Below, piece after piece: positions 7,063-45,565 of a stretch of 64,000 nucleotides of DNA. The notes under the pieces were generated by a model. That model ran no database searches and was not told the origin of the DNA. It worked only from the letters and a program-made list of their open reading frames with translations. Both the position numbers and the translations under genes were made by a program. Every line of letters starts with the position of its first letter. Position 1 is the first letter of the stretch. The stretch is taken from the NCBI GenBank assembly GCA_951406725.2, contig OX597823.1, positions 65,472,001 to 65,536,000 on the forward strand. The letters run 5' to 3'. The DNA comes from Octopus vulgaris (taxonomy: Eukaryota).

Positions 7063-7162
<100 letters not shown>

Positions 7163-7396
7163 GTACATACATAGATGTGTGTGTGTATGCATTTATATTT
7201 GTATGTATAGACACACACACATGTATGTATATACATATATATGTATATAAATGTATATATGTATATATATCTATCTATATAACTATATATATATCTATCT
7301 ATCTACCTATCTCTTTCTCTCTCTCTATATATATATATATGCATATATATATACATATATATACACACATATATATATATATATATATATACATAC

Positions 7397-7427
<31 letters not shown>

Positions 7428-7688
7428 CATACATATACACACATATATATATATATATATATAATTAATCAATATAGGGTGGCAAAAAAATTTTGTAGAA
7501 TTCTTTTGCCACCAGCGGCCTAGTAGGAAAAAATTAAATAGTCATAAACCATTTTTACGTTCAACATCACAATCAAGGAACGGCCATAATAGGCCATTCA
7601 CCCACTAGAAATAACAGCCAAAAGCTTTAACCGCAAAATAACATTAATACCGTAAACCAGGAGAAAATTGAAAAACTTTTACCCTGTA

Positions 7689-7795
7689 ATTTCTTAGACG
7701 ATGCACCGTTTCATCTACCGTTTAATGGTAAACTAACCTGATTAAATTAAATCAAGCCAATCCACCATAGGCCCTTAGACTCATCAGTAAGAAAT
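7689..7795 (-). ncRNA. Type I hammerhead ribozyme, copy 1
   Basis: Minus strand: atttctta-CTGATGA-gtcta...tagat-GAAA-cggtgcatc-GTC-taagaaat. 8-bp stem I, stem II gtcta/tagat, self-complementary stem III acggtgcatcgt, predicted cleavage between 7697 and 7696. Confidence 0.92.
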
Positions 7796-8172
7796 AGCCA
7801 AATCGGAACAGATATTTTTCACGAGGCATTCCTCTTGCTACCTCGGCAATATCTGACCTAAAATTTTCAAATCGTCGCACTCGCGCCAAATTTATCGGCA
7901 GCAAATAAACCACCGATTCCGTTACGGAACTAACCAGAAAATTCATAATTAATCAATATAGGGTGGCAAAAAAATTTTGTAGAATTCTTTTGCCACCAGC
8001 GGCCTAGTAGGAAAAAATTAAATAGTCATAAACCATTTTTACGTTCAACATCACAATCAAGGAACGGCCATAATAGGCCATTCACCCACTAGAAATAACA
8101 GCCAAAAGCTTTAACCGCAAAATAACATTAATACCGTAAACCAGGAGAAAATTGAAAAACTTTTACCCTGTA

Positions 8173-8279
8173 ATTTCTTAGACGATGCACCGTTTCATCT
8201 ACCGTTTAATGGTAAACTAACCTGATTAAATTAAATCAAGCCAATCCACCATAGGCCCTTAGACTCATCAGTAAGAAAT
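8173..8279 (-). ncRNA. Type I hammerhead ribozyme, copy 2
   Basis: Same sequence as copy 1, shifted 484 bp. Predicted cleavage between 8181 and 8180. Confidence 0.92.
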
Positions 8280-8456
8280 AGCCAAATCGGAACAGATATT
8301 TTTCACGAGGCATTCCTCTTGCTACCTCGGCAATATCTGACCTAAAATTTTCAAATCGTCGCACTCGCGCCAAATTTATCGGCAGCAAATAAACCACCGA
8401 TTCCGTTACGGAACTAACCAGAAAATTCATAATTAATCAATATAGGGTGGCAAAAA

Positions 8457-8502
<46 letters not shown>

Positions 8503-10728: not shown

Positions 10729-11976
10729 TCTGGTCATCCCATAGATTCTCTTAAAATTTTGAACAAAGAAAATAAGTGATCAAATGTTATATTTAATTTA
10801 ACTTTAATCATCAACGTACTTTACCTAATTATCTGTGACTTCCTTCCATCTATTTACAAGGCTTTTAATCCGCCTGTCAATATACAACACTTTTGGTTTC
10901 AAATCGAAGAACTCTGAAATGTCAGTTTCGCCTTCCTCCTGGCTTGCAAAATTTATGTCCCCCAAATGATTCTGTAGACTACGAAACAAATGGTAGTCTG
11001 AAGGAGCAAGGTCGGTAGAATAAGATGAATGAGAAATTATTTTCCCAACCAAGCTCATCGATCTATTCTGATGTGATCTTTGCAGTGTAGGGTCACGCAT
11101 TGTCCTGACGAAACATCACTCCTGTTCGATTCACCAAAGCGGCTCCTTTTTTCCTCAAAGCTTGGTTCAAACACTCTAATTACTGACAGTAGACTTGAGC
11201 ATTAATTGTTGCATTAGGTGGTAACAATTCAAAATGAATTACTCCATGAATTTCCCTTCTCGGTTGTGGTTGAGCTTTTTTCCTTTTACCAAGCCACTGT
11301 TTACAACGTTTAGCATTTCGATAGAAGATCCGTCTTCCGTCACCAGTCACAAGTTTATCCAAAAAGAGAGAAATGATTTCGCGAGAATGGAGAGAAGAGC
11401 AGATGTCCACTCGGGATTTGCGGTTGCTTTCGGACAATTCCTGAGGCACACATTTTCCAAGTTTAAGAACCTTTCTAAGTTGTTGAGGATTGCGATGAAC
11501 AGTTGTATGGTTTGAGCTAATTGCCAATTCTTCAACTGATAATGCAGAATTTTCTTCAATTAATGCCTCACGGAGCTTATCATCAATCTCAACTGGAAGT
11601 CCTCTTCGATTTTCATCTTCAAGGCTGAAATTTCTACTTCTGAATTTTGCCAACCCTCTTCTGCAAGATCTCTCATTCAAGCATTATTTCCAATAAACTG
11701 GGTGTATGTTTCGAGTCGCTTTGGCTGCGAGTCTCCTTTTTTTTCTACTCATAAAGCATTATGTGCCTCAAATGTGCTTTGGATGCTTCCATGTTAGAAA
11801 GGGTTTTAATCAGAGAAATTTTAATTCTATTATTCTGTAAAAATAATATTTAATTAGTTTAAATGTACACAAATCCCTAAAATGAATTTTTAATTTCATT
11901 AGAAATTCTACAATAGTATTAAATTTCATTCAATTTTAAAAAAGATAAACTCGGACAGAACTTATGGGATGAACTG

Positions 11977-27198: not shown

Positions 27199-27843
<645 letters not shown>

Positions 27844-32047: not shown

Positions 32048-32488
32048 ACTCTCTCTTTTACTCTTTTACTTGTTTCAGTCATTTGACTGCGGCCATGCTG
32101 GGGCACCACCTTTAGTCGAGTAAATCGACCCCAGGACTTATTCTTTGTAAGCTTAGTACGTATTCTATCGGTCTCTTTTGCCGAACCGCTAAGTTACGGG
32201 GTCGTAAACACACCACCATCGGTTGTCAAACGATGTTGGAGGGACAAACACAGACACACAAATTCACACACACATACATATATATACATATATTCGACGG
32301 GCTTCTTTCAGTTTCCGTCTACCAAATCCACTCACAAGGCTTTGGTCGGCCCGAGGCTATAGTAGAAGACACTTGCCCAAGGTGCCACGCAGTGGGACTG
32401 AACCCGGAACCATGTGGTTGGTTAGCAAGTTACTTACTACACAGCCACTCCTGCGCCTATACTTACCACACAGCTACTCCTGCGCCTA
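32048..32488 (-). mobile_element. Twin-like SINE with duplicated 5' terminus
   Basis: Full reverse complement of the 25436 family. The first ~29 nt are repeated at 32460-32488. Confidence 0.9.
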
Positions 32489-44317: not shown

Positions 44318-45565
44318 ATAATAATAATGAAATTATTGTATACAGTGCTCAGGTGCACCACAACTTGTCAGAAAGTGCATATAAAGTACATGCAGTAATG
44401 TAGAAATGTCTGGAAAGTGAACAGTGTATGAGTCAGATACATGCTTGTGTGTGTATGGAGGGGAGAAAATCAAGTGTAGTGTTGGCGAATCTCAGGAAGC
44501 ATGGAAGTTTTGAAGGATGCAGTGCTCCGACAACTAACAACCGATGCCGGCAGTTTGTTCCATGCTTCAGCAACTCTCAGCGTGAAAAAATGTTTCCTGA
44601 AGTCATGGGAGCTGTGCTGTTTTCTTACTTTGTAAATATGTCCACGGGTGTTAGATGGGTGGAGTTTGAAGAGGTGCTCCAAGTTATTGTTTGTGCGATG
44701 GTTGATAATTTTATGGGTGTCTGCCAAGTCAGCTGCCAGACGTCGGAGTTTCAATGTGTCCATGTCCAGGGAAGTAAGGCGTTCAGGATATGGCAAATGC
44801 CTGATGGAGGGTATTCTTTTGGTTGCACGACGCTGAACAGCTTCCAGACGATTGATGTCCTGGGCAAGATAGGGGTTCCAGACTGGTGATGCAAATTCCA
44901 GGTGAGGTCTTACCATAGCTATATAAAGCCGCAGATAGATAGCCGGAGAGCGGCTCACAAAGGATTTGGTGAGTGATGCCAAGACACCCTCAGCCTTCTT
45001 GACAATGTTAGCGATGTGTTTTGTCCAACGCAAATCACTGTCGACAATAACACCCAGGTCACGTTCACTTGAAGACTTTTTGAGACTAGTGTTGTGGAGG
45101 GAGTAGGTGGACGCTGGGTTTCTCCTCCCAAAATGCATGGTGGTACATTTGTCCACAGCCAGCTTGAGCTGCCAGTCCATGATCCACTGCTGCATTGTGT
45201 CCAGGTCTGCTTGCAATAGAGATCCATAGTGTACAGGATTTGACCTCTTTATTTCGAGGTACAGCTTGATGTCATCTGCATATTTCAACACTGTGGCATT
45301 CTTTAAGTTGGCATCTATGTCATTAACATATGCAACAAATAAAAGGGGGCCAAGAACAGATCCCTGCGGCACACCAGATGTCATCTCATAGGGCGAAGAG
45401 TGCTGTCCTAGAACTGTGACAACCTCTTTTCGGCCGAAAATAAAGGACGTTAACCAGTTATAGAGTTAGTCTCTTACACCCAACGCAGAAAGCTTCACCA
45501 TAAGTCTTTTGTGTGGCACAGAGTTAAAAGCCTTATCAAAGTCCAGGTAAACAACATCCACCCAG
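44318..45565 (-). mobile_element. 5'-truncated CR1-clade LINE (RT domain to 3' end)
   Basis: VDVVYLDFDKAFNSVPH, SGVPQGSVLGPLLF, YADD, ERDLGVIVDSDL, VRPHLEFASPVWNP, FFTLRVAEAWNKLP. 3' UTR ends in (ATT)n at ~44318. Confidence 0.95.
44470..45384 (-). pseudogene. LINE ORF2 reverse transcriptase, 304-aa open remnant
   Basis: Uninterrupted frame with QG and YADD motifs. An in-frame stop lies upstream (~45466) and the endonuclease is missing, so it is not autonomous. Confidence 0.9.

Follow-up and report, generated by a model that had tools for sequence, protein, structure and literature searches.

This locus raises the question of why stem II of a hammerhead ribozyme carries a long helix rich in G-U pairs, and whether that pairing is kept for the sake of RNA or of DNA structure. 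A preliminary description of the window (the whole 64,000-nt stretch of DNA analysed here, which is A/T-rich animal DNA full of microsatellites) had reported a 19-bp helix with six G-U pairs, held that it fixes the functional strand and proposed a protein-binding or tertiary-contact domain or an ADAR substrate. The pairing itself was borne out, on the minus strand only. The 5' arm of the distal helix of stem II (7750..7768, minus) and its 3' arm (7725..7743, minus) form 19 contiguous pairs, with 7768-7750 opposite 7743-7725 and a 6-nt UAAUUU loop between the arms. A strand-neutral tally gave 13 Watson-Crick pairs, six G-U pairs (pairs 6, 7, 9, 11, 12 and 14) and no A-C, an imbalance of 6 to 0 that within this one sequence alone corresponds to p = 0.03. 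When both strands were folded the 44-nt hairpin reached -21.7 kcal/mol on the minus strand (z -8.7, 0/200 shuffles) but only -5.3 kcal/mol on the plus strand (z -1.7, 17/200 shuffles). The mean pair probability of the distal helix was 0.98 in a circular monomer and likewise in a 300-nt linear context.

The repeat unit and its predicted hammerhead ribozyme

The helix lies in an insertion (7461..8458, minus) in which a non-coding unit of 484 bp is repeated 2.06 times in tandem; the insertion has its 3' end at 7461 and a 5' truncation at 8458. The tandem copies are identical, this insertion is without an inverted piece, and no open reading frame of 150 aa or more overlaps it. What had been called an array thus amounts to just these 2.06 copies, in which the helix is present twice, the second time at +484 within a second, identical hammerhead bearing the same extension (8173..8283, minus). 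A (TA)n microsatellite, the target, forms the 3' junction (7098..7463), and an A-run and (TA)n occupy 8459-8499 on the other side. The predicted monomer RNA, running from cleavage site to cleavage site (7697..8180, minus), is 484 nt long with 37% G+C, and the junction of a monomer circle is the same in sequence as the tandem junction. Elsewhere in the window, a 331-aa open frame (44470-45465, minus) resembles the C-terminal part of a non-LTR reverse transcriptase of CR1/L2 type, a 167-aa open frame (11180-11683, minus) resembles a fragment of a mariner transposase, and copies of a short interspersed repeat at 27351-27494 and 32116-32430 also flank many of the loci compared.

Along the minus strand the 5' strand of stem I (7788..7795, 8 bp with 7696-7689) is followed by the core CUGAUGA (7781..7787) and the 5' strand of basal stem II (7776..7780, G10.1 at 7780), which pairs with 7717-7713 and whose closing pair is G-U in place of the usual G-C. 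Internal loop 2 follows, with its 5' side at 7769..7775 and its A-rich 3' side at 7718..7724; GCC at 7772-7770 is the predicted partner, over 3 bp, of GGC in loop 1 (7797..7799, minus). The remaining segment (7697..7712, minus) holds the core GAAA (7712-7709), a 4-bp stem III with a palindromic UGCA loop and the GUC triplet (7699-7697), and the core consensus places the predicted cut between 7697 and 7696. Stem II as a whole spans 68 nt (7780-7713) and consists of a 5-bp basal stem, a 7x7 internal loop and the 19-bp helix; the 58-nt insert delimited earlier corresponds to 7775-7718 within it. CUGANGA, GAAA and an NUH triplet occur in type I order, the core was invariant in 30 variants, and stems I, basal II and III covaried, with 8/12 consensus pairs changed on both sides. 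As judged from sequence this is a predicted type I hammerhead ribozyme whose core is surrounded by stems I, II and III, stem I being open, and with predicted cleavage. Its strand is already set by the core CUGAUGA...GAAAC...GUC, so the helix is not what fixes it; nor is the helix special in this respect, the strand bias being common to the whole unit, since 13/13 subfamily monomers folded better on the ribozyme strand, by 19-59 kcal/mol.

Rfam gave no match for the window hammerhead at the gathering score of 34; family RF00163 matched 7691-7793 (minus) with 22 bits (E 0.017). The shortfall is attributable to a 45-position model without room for the insert, a limit of the model and not a failed biological feature. 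With a 4-bp stem III capped by a UGCA loop and a 68-nt stem II, the ribozyme also falls outside the definition of the minimal PLE hammerhead (min-HHR). The active fold carried little weight in energy models, with probabilities of 0.33 for basal stem II, 0.02 or less for stem III and, for stem I, 0.22-0.32 in the circle and 0.01-0.02 in linear form. No pile-up of ends was listed among contigs of RNA runs over 7540-7860.

Every comparison made here draws on a single assembly of 2.8 Gb. Among 1,376 candidates, the 41 full-length matches listed were all 100% identical, and the unit is young and dispersed. Subfamilies were homologous over the whole unit of 466-494 nt, down to approximately 70% identity, with stem II ranging from 44 to 78 nt. 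By pattern counts, 961 cores have a stem II of 68-98 nt and 387 one of 41-67 nt, against 4 with 10-40 nt, which agrees with the earlier remark that such a stem II sets the ribozyme apart from minimal PLE hammerheads. No short-stem relative carried the window's stem III; the 4 were found with a generic stem III, and 2 of them are deletion derivatives. GUA or GUU sites were present in 1,135 cores. A subfamily of 639 copies was also counted. In big sister subfamilies (L278-L285 and L286-L313) GUA replaces GUC, core position 7 is U, C, A or G, and the stem III loop varies from UGCA to UAUA while remaining palindromic throughout. Near-identical DNA was present in sequencing runs of three organisms, and the unit was also present in runs guessed to be RNA, in two of three of which hyper-edited contigs point to RNA derived from the family; none of the evidence comes from run X20, a faeces RNA sample with one contig at depth 2.7. 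Scans that listed at least 119 metagenome stretches and 12 viral ones gave 132 pattern matches for examination; among these, none was judged to form a coherent long-stem hammerhead, and none showed homology with the unit at E 1e-3.

The 3' ends of insertions fell into two clusters, with 76 and 50 of 133 ends. The first family-wide end point lies at 7560..7570 (minus), approximately 131 nt after the cut, and the second, approximately 236 nt after the cut, is that of the window copy at 7461. An inverted copy was present in 22/26 insertions, and junctions run into (TA)n. Two 3' end points, inverted 5'-truncated copies and microsatellite targets are described as hallmarks of Penelope-like elements, PLEs (PMC8557442; PMC11167929). 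Together with tandem units bearing a hammerhead, these features make the repeat a non-LTR retrozyme as PMC7229834 and a 2026 preprint (bioRxiv 10.64898/2026.07.22.740005) use the term, and it is likely a non-coding, non-autonomous Penelope-type retrozyme with thousands of genomic copies. Conserved hairpins (7477-7513 and 7579-7596, minus) were observed 15-25 nt upstream of the two 3' end points and are candidate internal start signals for reverse transcription. A further motif, GGGUAAAUGUUUUU, approximately 12-26 nt after the cut (7670-7686, minus), is nearly invariant across subfamilies; it resembles a splice donor, and its GGG may close loop 1. An intron from G|GUAAAU approximately 13 nt after the cut to UUUCUAG near 7605 was considered and rejected, as no joint was found in three RNA runs and one clade has GAUAAA in place of GU.

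Conservation of pairing in the distal helix

Hand-picked distinct variants were compared in three sets (15/42, 31/35 and 25/29), with near-duplicates and visibly decayed or truncated copies dropped. RNAalifold did not predict the distal helix on a MAFFT alignment of all clades, a miss due to 3' arms misaligned between clades, which were then counted apart. In the window's clade 93.0% of 589 cells were paired (31 variants), compared with 10.5-53.2% when slid, and in a distant clade 87.3% of 259 cells (25 variants), percentages that are raised by this choice of variants. Eleven of the 19 pairs in the window's clade varied between Watson-Crick and G-U and 1/19 was changed on both sides; column shuffles were not beaten by any measure (42-500 of 500), and the 15-variant set behaved in the same way. 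In the distant clade 5/11 pairs were two-sided and the observed covariation was exceeded by 0/500 shuffles, a result that kinship of the variants can inflate. Of the two signs expected of a family alignment, conserved pairing was therefore found in both clades, while compensatory change was confined to one pair in the window's clade and was more frequent in the distant one.

G-U occurred at 12/19 helix positions and A-C at 2, and at pairs 7 and 9 G-U was intermediate between two Watson-Crick states. Exceptions were present in the window's clade, where pair 12 was A-C in 10/31 and pair 5 unpaired in 18/31 variants. When changes were counted by parsimony on a tree from which the helix had been left out, 32 were between Watson-Crick and G-U against 4 between Watson-Crick and A-C (p 2e-6); this tree rests on short flanks and may have inflated homoplasy. 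Singleton mutations, at approximately 87-fold coverage of the unit, comprised 20 G-U-making and 29 A-C-making types (p 0.89). New mutations are thus symmetric between strands, and the 32:4 asymmetry among retained changes indicates selection on pairing in the ribozyme strand. That the helix forms and is under RNA-level selection can be stated with high confidence, in agreement with the preliminary description.

The alternative that the arms are a DNA-level palindrome, maintained as a cruciform or as a transcription-factor site in an internal promoter and without RNA selection, was suggested by repeated TAAT/TTAA words in the apex, which we take to resemble homeodomain sites. Promoters do reside in PLE terminal repeats (PMC8557442). 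However, neither the asymmetry set against symmetric mutation input nor the poor folding of the plus strand fits such a palindrome; this reading is largely refuted for the arms and very improbable.

The G-U pairs were another matter. An apex-anchored comparison covered 45/56 variants (4 long ones and 7 without the apex omitted), and in it a 16-position register was retained by the H subgroup, whose pairs differ at positions 9, 10, 12 and 13. One variant was nearly all Watson-Crick, at 15/16 pairs, and the number of G-U pairs per variant ranged from 0 to 7. G-U richness, which had been presented as a feature of the helix, is thus not a constant one; the G-U pairs are very probably incidental, interchangeable products of tolerated drift and not a signal.

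A second alternative treats the arm as neutral filler: an inverted duplication of old date, tolerated provided that it folds on itself and leaves the core undisturbed. Its variable length (44-78 nt) and sequence and the weak two-sided covariation would fit such an origin, as would the self-pairing of the whole unit, which is general among retrozyme circles according to PMC7229834. Filler would not, however, account for the near absence of short-stem cores (4, compared with 1,348 sharing their stem III pattern), for a conserved apex and loop 2 motif, or for two other element families that keep a long stem II, and this origin is considered improbable.

RNA editing, the predicted loop contact and the conserved apex

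The proposal that the helix is an ADAR substrate, its G-U pairs being fossil A-to-I edits fixed by reverse transcription, was examined over 7540-7860 in contigs from three presumed RNA runs and one DNA run, contigs being a form of data that drops rare variants. The element is hyper-edited in RNA contigs: in run X3 loose ends of 4 contigs had 6/7 A of the plus strand read as G at 7611-7627, and in run X9 one contig had clustered T-to-C at 7815-7844. Taken together, hyper-edited RNA contigs represented both strands of the repeat family, at window positions 7611-7627, 7649-7678 and 7815-7844 (runs X3 and X9). UAG contexts at several A/G-variable helix sites (pairs 6, 10 and 11) and a slight 5'-U lean of A-to-G changes on the tree (29/65, p 0.06) point in the same direction. 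These hyper-edited pieces nevertheless fall beyond the helix and involve both strands, as inverted copies predict; the long inverted copies of 22/26 insertions give far better duplexes and are probably the reason for this distribution. Within the helix no A-to-G change was listed except at 7768, in contigs of three RNA runs in which rare variants are invisible. The A-to-G change at that position was present at 92%, 21% and 0% in the three RNA runs and at 12% in DNA; it had looked RNA-specific, with 2 genomic copies, and was then explained by the 639-copy DNA subfamily. A-to-G was no commoner than T-to-C among singletons (7 vs 15), and on the monomer tree the difference was not significant either on internal branches (37 vs 35, p 0.09) or at tips (32 vs 41, p 0.72), so ADAR-driven mutation was rejected as an explanation. 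Two of the six G-U pairs, moreover, alternate with G-C and not with A-U. The suggestion of an ADAR target was not supported by these data, and the corresponding account of the helix is quite improbable.

A tertiary contact, another of the roles suggested for the extension, was more plausibly placed in the internal loop below the helix. The RCC on the 5' side of loop 2 was complementary over 3 bp to a GGY just beyond stem I in 48/56 variants, as GGC/GCC in 32, GGU/ACC in 9, GGU/GCC in 4 and three others including one AGC/GCU; GGC/ACC was never found. Shuffled loop 1 sequences gave a mean of 11 and a maximum of 20 in 1000, and an upstream control window gave 5. These counts involve few pairs and related variants, and a single event may account for the ACC/GGU swap. 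Column-by-column tests of this 3-bp pairing gave weak results in both clades (52-140 of 500 in one; 3, 100, 297, 435 and 442 of 500 in the other, partly because loop 1 was misaligned). Internal loop 2 sits 4-5 bp from the core, the usual place of loop 2, and pseudoknots between stems I and II are described as an established way of activating hammerheads (PMC3088659). This position and the known activating base-paired contacts favour a tertiary contact below the helix, and the helix would then close the loop. On these sequence comparisons, the predicted pairing of loops 1 and 2 is probably real.

The apex UUUAAUUUAAU (7741..7751, minus), comprising the 6-nt loop 7749-7744 and its closing pairs, was kept in 46/56 variants and was far better conserved than the arms; 3,742 genomic cores carry the motif compared with 6 for a reversed control. 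Protein binding, if any, points to the apex rather than to the G-U stem, and the tip is tentatively regarded as a putative protein-binding site.

An abundant intact element (L137, G000:C1:119513000-119522900; also L138, L143 and L144) has a 899-908-aa ORF in 3,624-bp tandem units, (TA)n targets and two 3' ends approximately 60 and 225 nt after the cut, and is recently active. The protein drew no name from Pfam or PDB; in Atlas clusters near it, HTH_animal was present in 25-99% and GIY-YIG in 26-50% of members, and its designation here as Neptune-like is our own reading of its motifs. The hammerhead in its terminal repeat has a stem II of 55-57 nt, an ACGU loop, a GUA site and the tip UUAUUCAAU, and the element shares two 3' end clusters and inverted-copy anatomy with the retrozyme unit. 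Sequence homology of the unit to the pseudo-LTR was sought in one intact family and four other long-stem loci and was nowhere better than E 0.26, and in view of this the Neptune-like element is a candidate helper and not a shown parent.

Other hammerheads with a long stem II were also present. An older family of approximately 300 candidates (L336, L337, L343-L372; 73-88% identity) has a minimal hammerhead with an AAUU stem III loop and a rod-like stem II of approximately 60-80 nt whose A/U tip is related to the apex, in a sequence otherwise unrelated to the retrozyme unit. At three loci (L337, L351 and L363) Neptune-like endonuclease ends lie 0.6-1.7 kb upstream on the same strand. As the apex motif served as bait for this family, its shared tip is a lead only, whereas the shared long stem is a direct observation. 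Two further unrelated hammerhead-like cores (L338:4087 and L339:4338, both plus) had a well-paired stem II of 73-76 nt with the same A/U motif, that of L339 consisting of a perfect 13-bp basal stem with a branched top. A long stem II looks like a trait of the PLE-associated hammerheads of this lineage.

Proposed role of the arm and relation to known hammerheads

The reading preferred here, with a probability of about 0.6, takes the helix for stem II's distal arm, in which pairing on the RNA strand is maintained and which would act as a clamp, shutting the docking loop 2 and displaying the A/U-rich tip, in a retrozyme copied by Penelope-type machinery. Tandem transcripts would fold into the hammerhead, with loop 2 docking on loop 1 by three base pairs, and would be cut after GUC, either alone or as a dimer via the palindromic stem III. 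The 484-nt monomer would be released and, like those of other animal retrozymes, probably closed into a circle; monomers would be re-inserted at (TA)n, from one of two internal start points, by a Neptune-like reverse transcriptase/endonuclease. If only foldable templates were copied, A-to-G and C-to-U changes that leave G-U pairs would survive and their A-C mirror images would mostly be lost, which would make the G-U pairs tolerated drift.

A distinctly less probable alternative is that the arm is chiefly protein-binding. The helix would then be a spacer holding out the UUUAAUUUAAU tip towards a Penelope protein or host factor that selects templates, chaperones the ribozyme or serves in ligation, with docking secondary. 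It is compatible with the clamp and differs from it in the main target of selection. The far greater conservation of the apex than of the arms (46/56) would be expected of such a spacer, as would the similar tip on a long rod-like stem II of the older unrelated hammerhead family near Neptune-like endonuclease ends and the UUAUUCAAU tip on the 55-57-nt stem II of the intact Neptune-like element. That family was, however, found by motif search in an A/T-rich genome, tips vary, and the apex is missing or altered in 10/56 variants. An anole PLE hammerhead is reported to cleave only with its protein, but the minimal protein-dependent region described there is at the reverse-transcription start, outside stem II (PMC11167929).

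Metazoan non-LTR retrozymes (PMC7229834; bioRxiv 10.64898/2026.07.22.740005) are likewise described as tandem units that are non-coding, low in GC and equipped with one type I hammerhead apiece, in dispersed arrays, with self-paired RNA and presumably driven by PLEs, and a mussel retrozyme hammerhead also is without the usual loop-loop nucleotides. The unit here, at 466-494 nt, exceeds the 170-400 nt given in PMC7229834 and fits the preprint's range of 51-972 bp. In the known retrozymes as described, stem II has approximately 4 bp, whereas here it has 44-78 nt with an internal loop, a distal helix and a candidate base-paired loop contact. Li, Clavereau and Pollet 2026 (bioRxiv 10.64898/2026.07.22.740005) report that eight of the nine retrozymes they assayed in vitro did not cleave. 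PLE pseudo-LTR hammerheads (PMC4209133; PMC11167929; PMC8557442) share the palindromic stem III, the two 3' end points delimiting a 'tail', inverted 5'-truncated copies and A/T-rich microsatellite targets. Their helix II is described as larger than usual at 6-8 bp, compared with approximately 24 bp in two tiers here; in the same accounts they have no stem III pairs, against 4 bp, and a tail of 30-40 nt, against approximately 105 nt. There is no ORF in the present unit, and its family differs from them further in a 10.1-11.1 pair that is G-U, A-U or G-C.

Pseudoknotted hammerheads are also known (Perreault et al. 2011, PMC3088659), in statistics that, as described, left out highly repetitive type I motifs. 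In contrast to those, only 3 (up to 5) pairs are predicted here, joining two internal loops within a type I hammerhead, and stem II runs past the contact into a closed hairpin. The 'long helix II' hammerheads of chrysoviruses and megabirnaviruses (PMC13725137) are also type I, with a helix II beyond the usual 4-5 bp, and active in vitro, but their helix II is given as 6-8 bp with a tetraloop, without evident loop contact, in a viral 5' UTR context. PMC10085705 concerns permuted hammerhead forms, and PMC6962438 counted 235 Rfam hammerhead hits in a squid. In the openly available text searched, neither a cephalopod retrozyme nor a hammerhead with so large a stem II was described. The element class, the PLE link and pseudoknotted hammerheads are thus already in print, and a G-U helix is by itself ordinary, as long self-paired stems with G-U are expected in retrozymes; the stem II architecture is a new structural variant.

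A stem II of 44-78 nt falls under the Rfam threshold and outside short-spacer descriptors, such as the 7-17 nt spacer given by Craig et al. (PMC8557442), and thousands of copies per genome therefore go unannotated. With the natural allelic series, a few transcripts would suffice to test both the contact of loops 1 and 2 and what the arm does. The tip, loosely shared with Neptune-like terminal repeats, is a candidate for the signal by which PLE proteins pick up retrozymes. A more speculative and rather unlikely extension is a two-tier architecture, distinctive of the Penelope-associated hammerheads of this lineage, in which loop 2 is pseudoknotted to loop 1 to serve catalysis and a rigid arm bears a UU(U/A)AUU(U/C)AAU tip as a handle for Neptune-type proteins, on their own terminal repeats and on an unrelated retrozyme alike. 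If this were true, the tip would provide the first case of a defined RNA signal that connects a retrozyme of an animal with the enzyme that mobilises it.
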